Positions 1,568 through 8,736 of a stretch of 31,289 nucleotides of DNA are shown here, piece by piece (the first letter of the stretch is position 1; each line of letters starts with the position of its first letter). The notes below the pieces were generated by a model. It saw nothing but the letters and a program-made list of their open reading frames with translations, made no database searches and was not told the origin of the DNA. The position numbers were made by a program, and so were the translations under genes. The stretch is taken from IMG/VR virus record IMGVR_UViG_2734482594_000020; one strand, 5' to 3'. The DNA is from a virus (taxonomy: Duplodnaviria; Heunggongvirae; Uroviricota; Caudoviricetes).

Positions 1568-2140
1568 TCATAATTCTGTGCTGGTGGCAGGAATTAATTT
1601 CTGCCAGATAGCGGAAACATATTTTGCCTGATGACGGGCATCAGCCAGGGCGTTGTGCCGTTCGCCATCGAAAGGCATGTCCATTTTGGGGTCGAATCCG
1701 ATGGAACGCCCAAGCGTAACGATCGTGCGTACATCGTGGTCATTCCAGTATGCCCACGGGCAGATTTGTCCTGCTCGCTCATAAGCTCCACGTAAAATTA
1801 CGTTGTCGAAGGTGGCTCCGTTACCCCAGACTTTTAAATATTTCGTATTGTCTGCGTGCCGGTTAATGAAATGATTTAGTTCTGAGAGAGCATCGCTGAT
1901 CGACAAAGTATCATCAATACAGATTGCAGCTCGTGCTTCAGGGCTTTGTTTCAACCACCACAGGATGGTATCGCCGTCAGGTGTAGCTCCTTGCTTCATA
2001 GCACTGTCTAGGCTGACAACCGCATAGAATTCTTGTCCGATGTCTCCGGTTTCTGGAGTGAAGAACACCGCGCCAATGGAAACGATCGGTGCATCCTTAT
2101 TTTTCCCCATCGTCTCAAGGTCGATCATTAAGTTGTTCAT
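1568..2140 (-). CDS. DnaQ-like (DEDDh) 3'-5' exonuclease
   Basis: 'MIDLETMG' (Exo I motif DxE), 'WGNGATFD' and 'HNALADA' (Exo III H-x4-D) motifs; strong RBS AGGAGGTG before the ATG at 2140. Confidence 0.7.
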   Translation of the reverse strand: MNNLMIDLETMGKNKDAPIVSIGAVFFTPETGDIGQEFYAVVSLDSAMKQGATPDGDTILWWLKQSPEARAAICIDDTLSISDALSELNHFINRHADNTKYLKVWGNGATFDNVILRGAYERAGQICPWAYWNDHDVRTIVTLGRSIGFDPKMDMPFDGERHNALADARHQAKYVSAIWQKLIPATSTEL

Positions 2141-2883: not shown

Positions 2884-3387
2884 TCACTCTCCTTTGATAC
2901 GAATGCCCGCGGCGTGTGGCACATTAACTTCCACGATGCGCACTGTTGGTTTGTACATCTCAATCGCTGTCAGCCAGTCAGCTCCTGTCATGCGCTTTTC
3001 CGCATCGCCATTAGTCCACTGAACCGGTACACCAATAGCCTTCATCGCGATTTCTATTTCCCCGGCAATGGCGCTTTTCCCGCAACCAGTAAAACCAGAG
3101 ACAACGACAAGAACTTCACCTTTGGCTGGTTTTATTTCCCGTGCTTCCAGTTCTGCAATGCGTTTGCTTTGGGCTTCTCGTTCATCCAACAGCGCCTGCA
3201 CTACTTCAGGGTTGAAAGCAGCAGCAAGACGGCTGGCGGTATAGTTAATACCCTCGTTGCGAGCCTCAGCACGTACTTCATCGAATTTACGCACCAGATA
3301 CTCAGCATTTGTTTCATTCACTTTCAGATCTCGTGGTACACATTTCCCGCGAAGAAACCCTTCCATTTCGAAAACATTCATGCGCAT
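2884..3387 (-). CDS. hypothetical early protein with a Walker-A-like motif (VVVSGFTGCGKS)
   Basis: 167-aa ORF; start overlaps the stop of the upstream gene; GxxGxGKS after a hydrophobic strand but only about 60 residues follow. Confidence 0.5.
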   Translation of the reverse strand: MRMNVFEMEGFLRGKCVPRDLKVNETNAEYLVRKFDEVRAEARNEGINYTASRLAAAFNPEVVQALLDEREAQSKRIAELEAREIKPAKGEVLVVVSGFTGCGKSAIAGEIEIAMKAIGVPVQWTNGDAEKRMTGADWLTAIEMYKPTVRIVEVNVPHAAGIRIKGE

Positions 3388-3914
3388 TTGCGTAACTCCG
3401 ATAAATCGTTAAAACGTTCCATAAACATCCCGTAGGCATGACCCGGTGCCAGTGGAATCACGTTGAACATCTCTGTTGCCGGGATGCCTTCCAGTACAGG
3501 CCAGAAAGAGCCATCATCAAGCCCGAGATCGCGGCGTTCGGTTGCCAGCATGATGAGATCGGCATATTTCACGGGTGTACTCATAACTGGGGGTAACCCG
3601 TATTTCTCACGGATTACGGCGTCTATTTTTTCTTCCATCCGTTTATAGTCAGGAAGAAGGCGTTTCAGTGGTGCGGGAATGTCCTGGCAATACGCTTCTG
3701 TTGCATCATGCATTAACGCTTCAAAAGCAAATTCCTGCGGCACCAGCTGGCTGCAAAGAACCGCATGTTGGGCGACGCTGTAGAAGTGCGAAAGATGACC
3801 GGCAAAGCGACAGATATTTGAAAGGGAAACCGCGATATCGTTAATATCGATGTCGTCTTTATTTATCTTGTCATAATAAAAATGCTTCCCGGAAAAAGTT
3901 TTAATAAATGACAT
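3378..3914 (-). CDS. HD-domain phosphohydrolase (YfdR-like)
   Basis: 'FAGHLSHFYSVAQHA' and 'LMHDATEAY' His/Asp motifs of the HD superfamily; ATG at 3914 with GGAG 9 nt upstream. Confidence 0.65.
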   Translation of the reverse strand: MSFIKTFSGKHFYYDKINKDDIDINDIAVSLSNICRFAGHLSHFYSVAQHAVLCSQLVPQEFAFEALMHDATEAYCQDIPAPLKRLLPDYKRMEEKIDAVIREKYGLPPVMSTPVKYADLIMLATERRDLGLDDGSFWPVLEGIPATEMFNVIPLAPGHAYGMFMERFNDLSELRKCA

Positions 3915-4041
3915 TTTGTTCTCCACGTATATGCACTGCACCGCGCTGAATTCTGGTAAAAGGAAGCCCTCACCATCCGGTGATTATTGAGTTAATTACG
4001 TTTCCATAAATGCCCCCGCAGGGGCATTTGCAGTAATGAAA

Positions 4042-4866
4042 TCAGGCGGTGAAAGTACCAATAAAGGTTTCTACTTTGCTGTCTTTGAATTTCTCAACAA
4101 GCAGATCACGAAATTCGTTAGCCATTTCTTCCTGCACCGCTTCCAGCTGAATAATGCGCAGAACCAGTACAGGACGATCGCCAGTGATAATGCTGAGGCG
4201 TAATTTAAACGGACGTTCTTTCAGACCTTCAAACGGAACGCATTTAAATTCAAATGCCACTGGCATAATGTCTTTGGTCTTCGCTTCGACAGACTCCATC
4301 AGGGAGCGTTTGCCGCTGAAGTCATTATCTTCAAAATCAGCGGTCTGGTTTGCTTCAATCGTGATTTTACGGACTGCCGCAGCCGCTTTTGTTGCTTGAA
4401 TGGCGTCACCATTAGCATCAAAGCCCACAAGGTAGTCGGCCCAGTCTTCGATCCATTCTGCCAGTGACTTCTGGGAGTTACGCTCGCCGTTAACAGACAA
4501 CAGAGCAGAGAACGGTGCTGTCTTTTTCAGTTTGAGAGTGGCAGTGTTATCTGCGTGACCTGGCTCATCAATAGTACCCAGGTTAAGCACACTGACGGCA
4601 CGCATATTATCGGCATCGATAAAGCAGCGGGTGCCTTCATCTGCAAGATCTTTAGAATAACGGGTAAAATCATCGATGCTGGCAGTGGAAAGTGCACCAC
4701 GGAAACGGAAGCGATTTAAATTAAATTTTTCCAGATCATGAATGCGGAAATTCTCAGGCAATGCCACAGCATCGGCACCAATCTTACTGATAATTTCATT
4801 AACACCCTGAGCAGAAATAAGGGCATGGATTTGATTAATTGCGGTTGCGTCTAAGTTCTGAGACAT
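4042..4866 (-). CDS. DUF2303-family protein (YfdQ-like)
   Basis: 274-aa ORF; length and sequence resemble the CPS-53 prophage protein YfdQ as I recall it. Confidence 0.6.
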
Positions 4867-4931: not shown

Positions 4932-5294
4932 TTAACGACCTGCTGCGCGGAGTTTTCCGTCAGGTTCACCGGCAAGAGTCAGTAATTGTCCCTGGTCTTC
5001 CTGCAGAATAGTCAGGCGACCACCGCGATTGACATACATCGGCGTTTCGGTGGTGTCTTCTTCGGAAATTTTCCCGCGGTTAGTCGGGCGAACATATGAG
5101 AGTTTGTGTTTGATTTTCACACGGTTCTCATCAAATGGTTCGATTTCCAGGTTGAGCGAGACCTTACCTTTGGTTTTCGTGTTCATCACACCGGAAGCGA
5201 CTTCACTGAGAACAGCGCCGATTTTGGTTTCAAATACGCCGCCGTCCAGCTCCCCGATAAATGCCTGCACATCAGTACTGCGTTCGCTAGCCAT
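4932..5294 (-). CDS. hypothetical early protein (YfdP-like, 120 aa)
   Basis: Internal ATG at 5294 preceded by GAGGAG (8-nt spacer) on the minus strand; the longer track ORF (to 5525) runs through leader hairpins and has no RBS. Confidence 0.5.
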   Translation of the reverse strand: MASERSTDVQAFIGELDGGVFETKIGAVLSEVASGVMNTKTKGKVSLNLEIEPFDENRVKIKHKLSYVRPTNRGKISEEDTTETPMYVNRGGRLTILQEDQGQLLTLAGEPDGKLRAAGR

Positions 5295-5431
5295 TTTGCT
5301 GCTCCTCATCATATCGACCCTGCAAGGCCGATTAGTTTCTCCACAAAACAGAGAAGAACACCTGCGGTGGCAGCCGCCCGGATGGATTGGGTTATGAGCC
5401 CGTCGTCCGGTGATGCTCTTCTCTGTTTTGT

Positions 5432-5475
5432 AAAAAGAGCGGTACCAGCCGGAAGCAAGTGTACAAACTGGTACC
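5432..5475 (-). terminator. terminator-like hairpin plus U-run inside the early-left leader
   Basis: On the minus strand GGUACCAG-(19 nt)-CUGGUACC is followed by GCUCUUUUUA; sits upstream of the first early-left gene. Confidence 0.35.
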
Positions 5476-5902
5476 GCCAAAGCAGTGGCTGTTGTGGTGG
5501 GGTTGTCACTCAGGTGTATGGTCAACCTGACAATCCGGTGTCCTCAACGGGGAAAGAGTAACCCCGCCATACTTACCGCCGCGCCATTTCGCGGATTACC
5601 ACAACGCTGAGAGCACTTAGCCAGTTACGGCACCACACTTTGTCGCGGTTCCATAAATGCCCTCATCGTTGCACCCTGGTCTCTTCCCAGGCGTCAAACC
5701 GAATCGCCACGCTGGTTAGGCGTCTTATCAGCATCCTCATTGACTTGCACATTCCGGCTACCTGGTTTGTTTGCCCGAGCAAGGAGTGGATTGTCCCCTT
5801 TAACGTCCCCAGACCGCTAACGACGCATGTGCCATACGCCGTGTTACAACCAAATTTTGTCAGGACCTTGTTTGTTGGTCTGGAAAGAAAGATAAAATGA
5901 AA

Positions 5903-5940
5903 TTGCGTAACGTGCAAGTATTTTATTGCGAGATATGCAA
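5903..5940 (-). promoter_or_regulatory. oL-like operator pair with candidate pL
   Basis: Two 15-bp near-palindromes TTGCGtaacgTGCAA (5903-5917) and TTGCGagataTGCAA (5926-5940), 23 bp centre to centre; minus-strand -35 TTGCAC and -10 TATCTT candidates overlap them. Confidence 0.45.
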
Positions 5941-5949
5941 TAGCGTGAG

Positions 5950-5975
5950 TAATGAAAAGCCACCTTCTGGTGGCT
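5950..5975 (-). terminator. rho-independent terminator downstream of the repressor gene
   Basis: Hairpin AGCCACC-ttct-GGTGGCT followed on the minus strand by UUUUCAUU, about 20 nt after the repressor stop. Confidence 0.55.
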
Positions 5976-5996
5976 AATTGATGTTGAGGTAGGGGG

Positions 5997-6689
5997 TTAA
6001 TTGTGTCGCTTAAGGGTTTGTGACTGACTGATTAAGACCTTTCCAAAGACCATAAACCGGTGTTCGTTTTCGCTGGTAATTCCCCATTCGCGGTAAATCT
6101 GATTATCAGAAATTACCAGCAGTTTATCAGGTATCATTTGCAGTCGTTTGACGTAAATTTTATCATCAAAACCAAATACATATATACCATCCCCATCAAA
6201 CTGATTGATACTGATATCAACGAAGATGAGATCTCCTGGCTCAATGGTTGGACACATACTGTCCCCACGAACGTTGATAACTTTAATGTGATTTGCTGGT
6301 CGTCCACCAAACATCGATACAGCATTATCAGTTCTGTATTCAATGGCATGAATCACATCAATGACATCACCGCCCTGGATAAGGCCATTTCCCGCACTGG
6401 CACTGACATCCAGCATTTCAATACGGAATACATCCTTCACCTGCGCAACATCCTCACTAATACTGTTTTTACATACAGTATTACTTTTGAGGTCTGAGGT
6501 AAAGAGATCAGCAATATCAACACCTAAGCTCCTGGCAATATTACTCAGGGCTTGTTCAGTGAATTGTTTCTGCTTACCTGTTTCGAGGCGCGAGATATTC
6601 GCCGCATCCACTCCTATTGCTTCAGCGAGATCGGCGATTTTCATGTTCTTCGCCTGGCGAAGTTGTCTGACTCGATTTCCTATGTTCAT
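5997..6689 (-). CDS. CI-like repressor (HTH_XRE N-terminus, LexA-like S24 peptidase C-terminus)
   Basis: N-terminal HTH ('IADLAEAIGVDAANISRLETGK'); C-terminal 'GDSM' serine and 'VKRL' lysine of the self-cleaving S24 fold; divergent from a Cro-like gene. Confidence 0.9.
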   Translation of the reverse strand: MNIGNRVRQLRQAKNMKIADLAEAIGVDAANISRLETGKQKQFTEQALSNIARSLGVDIADLFTSDLKSNTVCKNSISEDVAQVKDVFRIEMLDVSASAGNGLIQGGDVIDVIHAIEYRTDNAVSMFGGRPANHIKVINVRGDSMCPTIEPGDLIFVDISINQFDGDGIYVFGFDDKIYVKRLQMIPDKLLVISDNQIYREWGITSENEHRFMVFGKVLISQSQTLKRHN

Positions 6690-6709: not shown

Positions 6710-6786
6710 TTGCGCGTTAAGCAAATCAACTTGCGCAAAATATTTGCGTGAAATAATATGCTCATCACGCAATATGTGGAGGTTAT
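6710..6786. promoter_or_regulatory. oR-like operator cluster with divergent pRM/pR
   Basis: TTGCGcgttaAGCAA (6710-6724), the 8-bp palindrome TTGCGCAA (6731-6738) and aTGCTcatcaCGCAA (6758-6772) share the half-site used at oL; the Cro RBS GGAGG follows. Confidence 0.5.
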
Positions 6787-7047
6787 ATGCAATCACCATT
6801 ACGGAATGTGCGTAAGGCGCACGGATTTACTTTGCAGCATGTTGCTGCGGGCGTTCAGGTCAATCCAGCGACGCTGAGTCGTATTGAAAGACTGGAACAA
6901 ATTCCATCTGTCGATCTTGCAGAACGTCTGGCCAATTTTTTTAAGGGTGAAATCAGCGAAATGCAGATTCTTTATCCGGCACGTTTTCAATCTAGCCAAA
7001 ACCAGAATGGGTTTAAACCACAGGAACAGGAGGTAAGCCGTGGGTAA
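6787..7047 (+). CDS. Cro-like HTH (XRE) regulator
   Basis: HTH 'LQHVAAGVQVNPATLSRIERLEQ'; RBS GGAGG 4 nt upstream; divergent from the repressor. Confidence 0.75.
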   Translation: MQSPLRNVRKAHGFTLQHVAAGVQVNPATLSRIERLEQIPSVDLAERLANFFKGEISEMQILYPARFQSSQNQNGFKPQEQEVSRG

Positions 7048-7591
7048 GCATCATTGGAAAGTGGAAAAACAACCTGAGTGGTACGTGAAAGCTGTCAGAA
7101 AAACTATCGCGGCATTGCCAGGGGGTTACGCTGAAGCTGCTGACTGGCTGGATGTAACAGAGAACGCTTTATTCAACCGCCTTCGTGCAGATGGCGATCA
7201 GATTTTCCCGTTGGGATGGGCAATGGTTTTACAGCGTGCTGCTGGCAATCACCACATTGCGGATGCTGTCGCACAGTCTGCTGGTGGGGTGTTTGTATCA
7301 CTTCCTGAAATTGAGGAAGTAGAGAACGCCGATATCAACCAGCGCCTGCTGGAGGTCATTGAACAGATCGGCAGTTATTCCAGACAGATTCGTTCAGCAA
7401 TTGAAGACGGTGTAGTGGAACCGCATGAGAAGACAGCAATTAATGATGAATTGTATCTGTCAATTTCGAAGCTCCAGGAGCATGCGGCACTGGTCTACAA
7501 AATTTTCTGCGCTCCAGAAAAGAGTGACGCCCGCGAGTGTGCAGCTCCGGGCGTCGTGGCGTTTTGTGTCTGTGGAGAAACTAACGCATGA
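7040..7591 (+). CDS. CII-like / YdaT-like lysogeny regulator
   Basis: GTG start with AGGAGG 6 nt upstream; the position immediately after cro is typical of the CII(CP76)/YdaT family; assignment by synteny and general resemblance only. Confidence 0.45.
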   Translation: MGKHHWKVEKQPEWYVKAVRKTIAALPGGYAEAADWLDVTENALFNRLRADGDQIFPLGWAMVLQRAAGNHHIADAVAQSAGGVFVSLPEIEEVENADINQRLLEVIEQIGSYSRQIRSAIEDGVVEPHEKTAINDELYLSISKLQEHAALVYKIFCAPEKSDARECAAPGVVAFCVCGETNA

Positions 7592-8736
7592 ACAGTTTAA
7601 CGGCAAATAACCGTTTGTCGCAACAGCTGGTGGTCAGTGTCGCTGCACACCTGTTGTTACGGCATGAATGCAGATTACCAAATCACCTGGCTGTAAGTAA
7701 CCACAGAGAACTTTACCTGACTGTGGGGGGCGAGTTGTGCAGGAACTTAACCGCTGGTTTCGTGACGGAAGAGGACTTTATGTTCATGTTATTCGTTGGG
7801 AGCCAGAAACACAGCGCGTTATCTATCTTCGCAAAGACTACCCGCATGAGTGCTTTAGTCCTTTGTGGAAATTCAGGCGTGATTTTGTTGAGTGTGAAGG
7901 ACCACCAGCACATTGATTCTGCCATTCCGGGCCGTTACACTGTTCAGGCACCTTATAAAGCGGGTGCCGGGATTGGCGTCCTGGAATTGCATACGGCGAC
8001 AATTGGCGCGTTAGCGTCTTTTTTGTTGCTACAACTCAGCTATACCCAAATTATGGTGGGCTGGGTGGGGGCACCGAAAGGTGCGCCGGTTTCCGTATGC
8101 GCCGGTTACGCCAACCCTGCTCAGTTCACCACCAGCGAAATTGGCGTTTCCGGTGGTGGAAGTTATCCATTGCATACGGAGGCTGCCATCATGGCTACGA
8201 TCCCTGCCTTAGTTCAACCTGAACTTTGCATTATTGCAGACAAAGTTGTTACTTCTTCTCTGGCTGTTGCTAGTTATTTCGGCAAACAACACAAAAACGT
8301 CATTCAAAAAATTGCGTCTCTTGAATGCTCTGCCGAATTTACTGAGCTGAATTTCCAGCTCAGTGAGTACATCGACGCATCAGGCCGCAAACTACCTTGC
8401 TATCAAATAACCCGCGACGGCTTTGCGTTTCTTGCTATGGGTTTCACGGGTAAACGTGCTGCCCAGTTCAAAGAGGCATACATCAATGCCTTTAACCAGA
8501 TGGAGAAACAGCTTTCAAAGCCCGCTGTACCGAGCGACGTTGCACATAACGCCAGCGTTCTCTGTTCCTACATTTCATCAATTCATCAGGTCTGGCTGCA
8601 GCAGCTTTATCCTATGTTGGCAAAAGCCGAATCTCCGCTGGCTGTTAGCTTATATGACTATATTAATGATGCTTCGGCGCTGGCCTGCCTCATAAATTTG
8701 TCGCTGAACCCTTCAGAGGTAAGGGGGCGCAAATGA
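7588..8736 (+). CDS. Rha/ORF6N-family phage regulatory protein (domain in residues ~202-300); start uncertain, alternative internal start at 8191
   Basis: 382-codon open frame with ATGA coupling to the upstream gene and GGAG before the ATG at 7588; the Rha-like motif 'SSLAVASYFGKQHKNVIQKI' lies after the internal ATG at 8191, which has its own GGAGG RBS. Confidence 0.5.
   Translation: MNSLTANNRLSQQLVVSVAAHLLLRHECRLPNHLAVSNHRELYLTVGGELCRNLTAGFVTEEDFMFMLFVGSQKHSALSIFAKTTRMSALVLCGNSGVILLSVKDHQHIDSAIPGRYTVQAPYKAGAGIGVLELHTATIGALASFLLLQLSYTQIMVGWVGAPKGAPVSVCAGYANPAQFTTSEIGVSGGGSYPLHTEAAIMATIPALVQPELCIIADKVVTSSLAVASYFGKQHKNVIQKIASLECSAEFTELNFQLSEYIDASGRKLPCYQITRDGFAFLAMGFTGKRAAQFKEAYINAFNQMEKQLSKPAVPSDVAHNASVLCSYISSIHQVWLQQLYPMLAKAESPLAVSLYDYINDASALACLINLSLNPSEVRGRK

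Follow-up and report, generated by a model that had tools for sequence, protein, structure and literature searches.

The small RNA DicF of Escherichia coli K-12 is made from the Qin prophage in two forms, a species of 190 nucleotides (nt) whose 5' end is generated by RNase III and a species of 53 nt whose 5' end is generated by RNase E, and both come from the transcript of a DicA-repressed promoter (Ragunathan et al., bioRxiv 10.1101/2023.04.14.536235). STnc100/PasD is a described family of prophage small RNAs (bioRxiv 10.64898/2026.05.13.724894), and the authors of the phage LLS paper have speculated that N-less lambdoid phages with the genes yfdP-yfdQ-yfdR use antitermination of the put type (PMC12315714). 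Here, we analyzed a 31,289-nt stretch of DNA (IMG/VR record IMGVR_UViG_2734482594_000020; hereafter, the window), which is a lambdoid prophage of the SfV/mEp460/cdtI type, and in it the interval 5295-5996, the 590-base gap between the cI repressor gene and the first of the early-left genes, which run leftward from 5294. The initial annotation treated this gap as one structured noncoding leader of about 600 nt. Its structured and noncoding nature was upheld, but the gap comprises five RNA modules in series, each conserved and exchanged on its own. Read on the minus strand from the early-left promoter pL, they follow in this order:

5664..5848, minus strand: M1, a pseudoknotted RNA motif of about 185 nt (covariance-model match of 157.5 bits; covariation)
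5601..5672, minus strand: SH, a long irregular spacer hairpin, GCAACGAUGAGGGCAUU...AAGUGCUCUCAGCGUUGU (-38.7 kcal/mol, z -4.83, 0 of 200 shuffles as good)
5492..5605, minus strand: M2, a multi-stem domain closed by GUUGUGGU/ACCACAAC (identity with K-12 Qin)
5432..5491, minus strand: M3, a DicF-like small-RNA 3' domain with an intrinsic terminator (stem 5478-5439, U-run 5436-5432)
5338..5436, minus strand: M4, a long stem-loop that starts at the terminator U-run (arms 5431-5407 and 5367-5343, apex CGACGGGCUCAUAACCCAAUCC)

We give a probability of about 0.6 to the reading that the gap is the untranslated 5' part of the pL transcript and forms a polycistronic noncoding-RNA cassette rather than one regulatory leader. 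The 3' half appears to be a variant of the known DicF system, and M1 appears to be an undescribed RNA family. On the minus strand, the leader from 5890 to 5280 folded at -236.9 kcal/mol, compared to -204.5 +/- 6.4 kcal/mol for dinucleotide shuffles (z -5.1), which agrees with the earlier expectation of a structured RNA on the early-left strand. In blastn searches against phage genomes, the relatives differed by part of the gap: the segment 5295-5500 travels with yfdP, the segment 5500-5605 has different relatives, and the segment from about 5600 to 5860 matches unannotated DNA in phages of very different kinds. The Rfam/Infernal check that had been proposed for the gap was run with Rfam 15 at the gathering threshold on the whole window and at E<=10 on the gap, and ten related loci were scanned as well. 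At the gathering threshold, the whole window gave isrK and C4 only, both outside the gap, and the scan of 5200-6050 at E<=10 gave one chance partial match and nothing for M1, M2, M3, or M4. Seven of the related loci returned tRNA, isrK, and C4 only. Neither ARAGORN nor the Rfam tRNA model found a tRNA or tmRNA in the window.

The evidence for the 3' half comes from comparison with the K-12 Qin prophage. M2 is identical at 104 of 115 nt (90.4%) to the Qin segment immediately upstream of dicF and is the counterpart of the 5' part of the long DicF species; neither ARAGORN nor Rfam RF00005 called it a tRNA. The M3 core, UUUGGCGGUAYCAGUUU, agrees with K-12 DicF at 19 of 20 positions and has the same neighbors, and M3 shares with DicF the GGCGG...CCGC stem and the U-run that make up the scaffold. 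A point 190 nt back from the 3' end of K-12 DicF falls within a long predicted stem, on its 3' strand (2739-2758 of the locus, paired with 2673-2693), and SH is a stem of the same kind in the same place with a different sequence. Such a long stem also occurs in SfV and ST64B, again made of other paired sequences. Given the M2 identity, the M3 core, and the stem in the same place, SH-M2-M3 corresponds to a precursor of the long DicF type and is, on these alignments, a homologue of the K-12 Qin dicF precursor. By analogy with K-12, SH is probably an RNase III processing stem. The leader of P1 after the Pban promoter, which its authors called a "dicF-like region," matches window positions 5499-5594.

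The terminator-like hairpin with a U-run that had been noted at 5475..5432 was confirmed on the minus strand as a 13-bp stem, with perfect 10-nt arms at 5439-5448 and 5468-5477, followed by CUUUUU (5436-5432). It was absent from the list of a simple terminator scan because its loop is 15 nt long. The DicF 5' seed UUUCUGGUGACG is absent from the window in the alignment, with AGCCACUGC in its place, and the loop of M3 is not that of DicF. With a gathering threshold of 48 bits, the Rfam DicF model (RF00039) scored 76.7 bits on K-12 DicF and 20.5 bits (E 0.95) on the phiNP copy of M3, and it gave no match in 5200-6050 even at E<=10. Since the seed is missing, the loop is different, and the model finds no match, the targets of M3 probably differ from those of DicF. 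M3 is thus best described as a DicF-family scaffold whose specificity would be another one, and not as DicF itself. The initial annotation had also offered an RNase III site or a small RNA as the nature of the long stem at 5343-5431. The type of element was correctly named: a DicF-like small RNA has the terminator hairpin as its 3' part, but the likely RNase III stem is SH and not the 5343-5431 stem, which lies downstream of the M3 terminator. The small RNAs AgvB, AsxR, and Pas were considered for the CACAAC string that precedes M3 and were set aside as PR'-region small RNAs already in Rfam. Separately, a stretch close to the DicF seed, AUUUUCUGGUGAUGAC, stands directly after M1 and upstream of ban in P1 (locus L004, about 2930-2985, minus strand), apart from the "dicF-like region."

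The position after SH is an exchangeable slot. In the epsilon15-like phages it holds a real tRNA-Arg(UCU), in the order promoter, M1, SH, tRNA-Arg, DicF-like terminator, and the end of the SH stem is position +1 of the tRNA. One variant locus, L125, has a tRNA-derived domain in the slot that keeps a D-arm and the GCCGGUUCGAAUCCGGC T-arm, and another domain occupies it in SfV, ST64B, and mEp460. At least three different 5' segments are found on one M3-type scaffold among the relatives, and the joints GUUGUGG and CCACAAC are precisely where near-identical phages diverge. The L125 domain, GUUGUGGUUAGCUCAG...GCCGGUUCGAAUCCGGCACCACAAC, is tRNA-like, with a normal D-arm, T-arm, and acceptor stem and about 66 nt at the place of the anticodon arm, and was not called by ARAGORN. 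The SH loops of SPN1S and phiNP contain T-arm-like hairpins (loops UUCGAUU and UUCAAUU). Below the STnc100 (RF02076) gathering threshold of 47 bits, matches of 34 to 35 bits were seen in the ST64B M2 module (L151, 1391-1509, minus strand) and in the K-12 dicF-dicB spacer (L150, 2933-3142, plus strand); the window, whose M2 is of the Qin type, had no STnc100 match. These scores suggest that STnc100 may belong to the same set of exchangeable modules.

M4 was known from the initial annotation as a perfect 15-bp inverted repeat (5343-5357 and 5417-5431). The repeat is real and is contained in longer arms of 25 nt (5343-5367 and 5407-5431) that are 84% complementary, and the minus-strand RNA has a folding energy of -50.2 kcal/mol (z -7.35), which none of 200 shuffles equaled. 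Among 12 diverse copies, taken from Escherichia, Salmonella, Klebsiella, Citrobacter, Kosakonia, and Pseudescherichia, seven pairs are changed on both sides and the apex CGACGGGCUCAUAACCCAAUCC is strongly conserved. The RNA is that of the minus strand, given that several of its U-G pairs would be C-A on the other strand. M4 goes with M3 even where the following gene is not yfdP. Because M4 follows the terminator, it cannot decide termination at M3.

M1, which the initial annotation had not noticed, begins about 35 nt past the predicted pL start. It folds into five nested helices plus a pseudoknot that pairs a loop AACC with GGUU, and its blocks are ACGGCGUAUGGCACAUGCG, AGCGGUCYGG, GGUAGCCGGAAUGUGCAAG (5762-5744), GGCGAUWCGGUKUGAC, and a hairpin with a GAAGAGA loop. 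When the copies found by blast were aligned, long invariant blocks alternated with variable hairpins, and one run of 19 invariant nucleotides is unpaired. The initial annotation had called for paired bases to be conserved, and across 42 distinct sequences 97.8% of the cells were standard pairs, with compensatory changes on both sides at 13 of 33 pairs; none of 500 shuffles reached the observed values, and pairing fell to 29 to 41% when the partners were slid. The pseudoknot joins a hairpin loop to a downstream segment as CACC with GGUG, or as AACC with GGUU in seven sequences. One Kosakonia copy has AACC/GGUU while its nearest relative keeps CACC/GGUG, apparently an independent change. G-U pairs in several helices fit the minus strand only. 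A covariance model built from 22 representatives found exactly one copy per locus at 46 loci (115 to 182 bits; 157.5 in the window) and none in HK022, SfV, SfII, or K-12 Qin. M1 had no Rfam match at the gathering threshold or at E<=10, its invariant strings were in no paper of the literature searched, and keyword searches for a described motif returned nothing relevant. M1 is therefore a well-supported structured RNA that appears to be undescribed in Rfam and in that literature.

The distribution of M1 is wide. A 262-nt query of M1 plus SH matched 1,833 of 5,426 complete E. coli genomes, about a third, and among the 60 matches listed for this query no annotation lay under it except for a neighboring tRNA-Arg. 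Further copies were fetched with a pattern of two blocks (TAGCCGGAATGTGC or GCCGGAATGTGC plus GGCG.T.CGGT.TGA), which gave viral and genome loci, namely, 120 viral contigs and 15 species-representative genomes. All 15 genomes are Enterobacterales, and the genera are Escherichia, Citrobacter, Klebsiella, Kosakonia, Kluyvera, Pseudescherichia, Pseudocitrobacter, and Candidatus Erwinia dacicola. In mEp460, mEp390, and cdtI, M1 lies behind pL, right after the repressor in the lambdoid mEp390. P1 and P7 have the match between the tRNA-Ile gene trnI and ban. In the epsilon15-like phages phiV10, TL-2011b, SPN1S, and Tyrion, M1 is on the opposite strand in the interval from terminase to portal gene, beside tRNA-Arg, with M1 upstream of the tRNA in phiV10, SPN1S, and Tyrion. 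It also occurs in D6, SJ46, and Klebsiella phages. In every case its orientation is that of the adjacent tRNA genes or operon, and in the window it lies on the minus strand, transcribed by pL. In phage D6 (locus L010, 1617-1689, minus strand), an unannotated tRNA (Rfam, 58.5 bits) is found immediately upstream of M1, as in the trnI-M1 arrangement of P1.

Counted over 131 copies, 54 stand at the start of a pL operon 120 to 270 nt after a repressor gene, and the repressors before them fall into four types: Peptidase_S24 is found in two, and the other two have just an HTH domain. A tRNA gene abuts 52 copies, following as tRNA-Arg(UCU) in 32 and preceding as tRNA-Ile2(CAU) in 20 that are P1-like, and 79 have no tRNA within range. 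An intrinsic terminator occurs within 700 nt after M1 in 107 of 125 copies; the other 18, of the P1 and D6 types, have none in that distance. Given that the unpaired blocks are conserved across phages sharing no other genes, a host partner is pointed to, and we are rather confident that M1 represents, at the minimum, a functional RNA family not described before that has such a partner. Our best guess is that M1 would be a stable RNA in its own right, exchanged as a module, that binds a host component through its strictly conserved unpaired blocks.

Several other pairings and resemblances were considered and dropped. Part of M1, CCGGAA..GCAAGU (invariant block CCGGAAUGUGCAAGU, 5743-5757), is complementary with a 3-nt bulge to the M3 loop ACUUGCUUCCGG (5449-5460). 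The duplex energy was no better than that of shuffles (46 of 300 as good), the complementarity is missing in the epsilon15-like copies, and it is probably due to chance. Likenesses seen by eye to RfaH ops (GGTAGC), boxA (UGCUCUUU, in some SH stems), a hammerhead core (GAUGAG), a T-box (UGGUACCGC), and an HDV fold each failed at conserved positions or differed among lineages.

We considered that M1 could instead be a cis-acting antiterminator of the nascent RNA, an analogue and not a homologue of HK022 put, that replaces the missing N by folding just after pL, binding the transcribing RNA polymerase, and carrying it past M3 and later terminators. This we regard as possible but unlikely. The absence of an Arg-rich N-like protein had been claimed by the initial annotation, and an Arg-rich-motif scan of the window, as well as of 4 kb downstream of 118 related copies, returned spurious open reading frames (ORFs) only. 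There is no boxA before the M1 hairpin CCUGG-GAAGAGA-CCAGG, which only loosely recalls boxB as read from the sequence. An antiterminator would fit the 54 copies at the start of pL operons behind four repressor types, the terminator that stands before protein genes after 107 of 125 copies, and the long invariant unpaired blocks, which in unrelated phages of one host order are compatible with contact to a host machine such as RNA polymerase. Put needs no tether to the polymerase, so that later cleavage of the RNA would be harmless (PMC9378689), and put-type antitermination has been guessed for N-less phages with the same early-left operon (PMC12315714). In addition, SfV, ST64B, and phiNP, which lack M1, hold a different conserved element of about 65 nt in the same slot directly after pL.

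Against this role, LLS has the same terminator and downstream genes and an extra terminator without M1, K-12 Qin reads dicF into dicB without M1, the 18 copies of the P1 and D6 types have no terminator within 700 nt, and the 20 P1-like copies lie in mid-operon directly after a tRNA. M1 is also unlike putL and putR, with 185 nt and six helices compared to about 70 nt and two stems (PMC9378689). The comparison with HK022 put that the initial annotation had drawn is unsupported as homology: we read the HK022 pL and pR leaders (putL and putR) and saw no likeness, and the M1 model had no match there. HK022 put acts in cis against termination through the beta' zinc-binding domain of the polymerase. 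The reading of M1 as a novel kind of phage RNA that targets the host transcription machinery while it is being made, with put-like processive antitermination but an unrelated, much larger fold, is correspondingly doubtful. If it held, M1 would be a movable module of N-less lambdoid phages, P1-like phage-plasmids, and epsilon15-like phages, and the passing of a DicF-type terminator would be explained.

The 65-nt element of the M1-less phages is located at about 3490-3560 in SfV (L003), 1800-1865 in ST64B (L151), and 1910-1975 in phiNP (L153), all on the minus strand. It consists of CGAACAGGCAGGACGCCCACGAAGUAGCCGCC, a hairpin, and GGAUGAUUCG; the hairpin covaries (CCUGG/CCAGG, CCGGU/ACCGG, CCCGG/CCGGG), the strings CGAAC..GGC and GGAUGA are in common with HK022 putL and putR, and Rfam gave no match. 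On these shared strings, the element may be a relative of put. Phage LLS has the SH-M2-M3-M4-yfdP layout of the window with neither M1 nor the SfV-type element, and between its pL and SH-M2-M3-M4 lies an extra strong terminator-like hairpin, CUGGCUGCUCAC...GUGACAGCCAGCUUUUU (L154, about 1830-1870, minus strand).

A link of M1 to tRNAs is less probable still. M1 would then serve as a large structured leader or companion RNA governing how the adjacent tRNA or tRNA-like unit matures, how stable it is, or how it is used, as the 32 copies followed by tRNA-Arg(UCU) and the 20 preceded by tRNA-Ile2(CAU) might suggest. What fills the slot after SH is either a true tRNA or a domain derived from one, with the D-arm and T-arm of L125 and the T-arm-like SH loops, and the SH stem ends at the tRNA +1. 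However, 79 of 131 copies have no tRNA within range, the M2 of the window is not recognized as a tRNA, no complementarity between M1 and the tRNA was found that holds across variants, and the Rfam models of GOLLD and ROOL do not match here.

It is very unlikely that M1 is a riboswitch-like leader that senses a ligand or factor and sets the frequency of termination at M3. Such a role would suit an RNA that has a pseudoknot and invariant unpaired nucleotides and precedes a terminator, but M1 and the terminator are about 190 nt apart (SH and M2), no alternative pairing between the two was found, the downstream genes are unrelated among the contexts (tRNA, ban, yfdP, and others), and some copies have no terminator at all.

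Weakest of all is the possibility that the gap is decayed coding sequence or that the hypothetical ORFs on the opposite strand of relatives are real genes: ORFs are annotated there (mEp460_036 and mEp460_037 on the plus strand; unnamed features in cdtI, Ayreon, and 2H10) and plus-strand open frames are common across M1, but across 41 relatives the invariant blocks fall into 16 different combinations of codon phase in these frames, M1 copies differ in length by non-multiples of three, no ORF of the gap had a Pfam match, and the 19-nt invariant run and compensatory stem changes are signatures of RNA. Protein coding of the gap was rejected on the Pfam searches and the frame phases of M1, which revealed no conserved ORF, as the initial annotation had anticipated for the stretch between its pL/oL candidate and the ATG at 5294. 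The hypothetical proteins annotated across from these modules probably arise as artefacts where stop codons are scarce, with the frame tested across M1 only. Probable cases are mEp460_036 and mEp460_037 (mEp460 locus L001, 2618-2761 and 2803-3171, plus strand; window stretch 5640-5900, plus strand), the relatives cited for these two, UTI89_C5094 and PcdtI_gp40, and the unnamed features under the matches in cdtI, Ayreon, and 2H10.

The cassette is set among the following features of the window:

5950..5975, minus strand: intrinsic terminator of cI from the terminator scan, hairpin AGCCACCAGAAGGUGGCU then UUUU, directly after the cI stop
5903-5917: oL operator of 15 bp, TTGCGTAACGTGCAA, a match to TTGCG-N5-WGCAA
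5926-5940: second 15-bp oL operator, TTGCGAGATATGCAA, a match to the same consensus
5889..5917, minus strand: predicted pL promoter, -35 TTGCAC (5917-5912), 17-nt spacer, -10 TATCTT (5894-5889)
5997-6689, minus strand: cI repressor, HTH and Peptidase_S24 domains
6787-7047: cro
7040-7591: CII (CP76) gene
4932-5294, minus strand: first early-left gene, yfdP-like, from the ORF list and the annotation of relatives
4042-4866: yfdQ, DUF2303 (Pfam), the next gene after the yfdP-like gene
3378-3941: ORF after yfdQ, yfdR-like by eye (unscanned)

The operators and pL candidate had been placed at 5903-5940 by the initial annotation, and the operator call was right, as only three exact TTGCG-N5-WGCAA sites exist in the 31 kb: the two of oL and one at 6710-6724, in the cI-cro gap. 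The pL -35 sits inside an operator, and transcription would start near 5882. The promoter candidate did not appear in the promoter scan list because its match is weak (7/12). At the same place, phage LLS has TTGACC-17-TAGATT. On the pR side, Rfam identified isrK (7948-8024, 61 bits) and a C4 antisense RNA (8049-8136, 81 bits) within 7948-8136 on the plus strand, flanked by the CII-like gene and by an ORF that looks Rha/antirepressor-like by eye. A mechanically called ORF of 382 aa (7588-8736) crosses both, and its N-terminal two thirds are probably not protein. With isrK and C4 on the pR side, regulatory RNAs of the processed kind would therefore be found on both early arms of the phage.

Returning to the RNA cassette as the favored reading, we propose the following course of events. 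Once the repressor is lost, RNA polymerase would start near 5882 and transcribe M1, SH, M2, and M3, and for many transcripts the M3 terminator (U-run 5436-5432) would probably be the end point. As in the homologous dicBF transcript of K-12, RNase III would cut SH and release an M1-containing 5' RNA and a "long DicF-like" RNA of about 175 nt (M2 plus M3), which RNase E would trim to a short, terminator-bearing small RNA. The trimmed RNA would keep the DicF scaffold with a different 5' segment and loop and, thus, presumably have different targets. Read-through transcripts would carry M4 and the yfdP-yfdQ-yfdR genes.

Five points count against this proposal. The start site, the cleavage sites, and the efficiency of the terminator are predictions from the sequence. 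If most transcripts stop at M3, the early-left genes would be poorly expressed; a mechanism of read-through may exist, and the proposal does not supply one. The folding energy of M1 by itself is unremarkable (z -0.37), and since single-sequence folding is uninformative here, the M1 structure rests on covariation. The invariance of the two pattern blocks is partly built into the fetched set of M1 copies, and the set derived by blastn shows the same invariance. Lastly, the term DicF-like for M3 relies on scaffold, neighbors, and upstream homology, whereas the seed and the Rfam model fail.

If the cassette reading holds, the DicF locus, known up to now chiefly from work on the defective Qin prophage of K-12, is one instance of a modular and exchangeable RNA cassette. 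The parts of the cassette are a stem for processing, a domain that is a tRNA or derives from one, a small RNA that bears a terminator and whose seeds can be swapped, and, downstream, a conserved stem. Such a cassette heads the early-left operon of many intact temperate phages, which would be the natural setting for DicF biology, and it predicts new seed variants with new targets. M1 is carried by roughly one in three complete E. coli genomes and by classic phages, P1 among them, and one would expect it to have a specific partner in the host. Should that partner be RNA polymerase, it would answer how the N-less lambdoid phages with yfdP-yfdQ-yfdR pass their early terminators (PMC12315714). Several "hypothetical protein" annotations over the region in phage records are probably spurious.

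Among known systems, the likenesses are of different kinds and extents. The P1/P7 C4, P4 CI, and Gifsy IsrK RNAs (RF01695 and RF01394) are, like the products proposed here, small RNAs cut from an untranslated early phage transcript. C4 and CI are matured by RNase P. They differ in that no sequence or model match connects them to M1 to M4 and in that the precedent for the cassette is RNase III with RNase E. GOLLD and ROOL are large structured RNAs beside tRNAs in prophages. They resemble M1 by context only, as conserved and intricately folded phage RNAs, with 52 of 131 M1 copies abutting a tRNA gene; they differ in having no model match here, M1 is much smaller, and M1 is confined to Enterobacterales as far as searched. 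For STnc100/PasD, the same slot in relatives holds an STnc100-related RNA (34 to 35 bits), whereas the M2 of the window does not match. HK022 put shares with M1 a position just downstream of pL in a lambdoid phage without N, with terminators before the early genes, but it is an element of about 70 nt with two stems (PMC9378689), compared to the roughly 185 nt, five nested helices, and pseudoknot of M1. The dicBF locus of K-12 Qin has in common with the window an early-left-type operon under a repressor of the cI/DicA type and the order of long stem, multi-stem domain, and terminator-bearing small RNA. In K-12, three small ORFs (ydfABC) precede the cassette and M1 is missing, whereas here the cassette lies directly at pL, with M1 as its first module.

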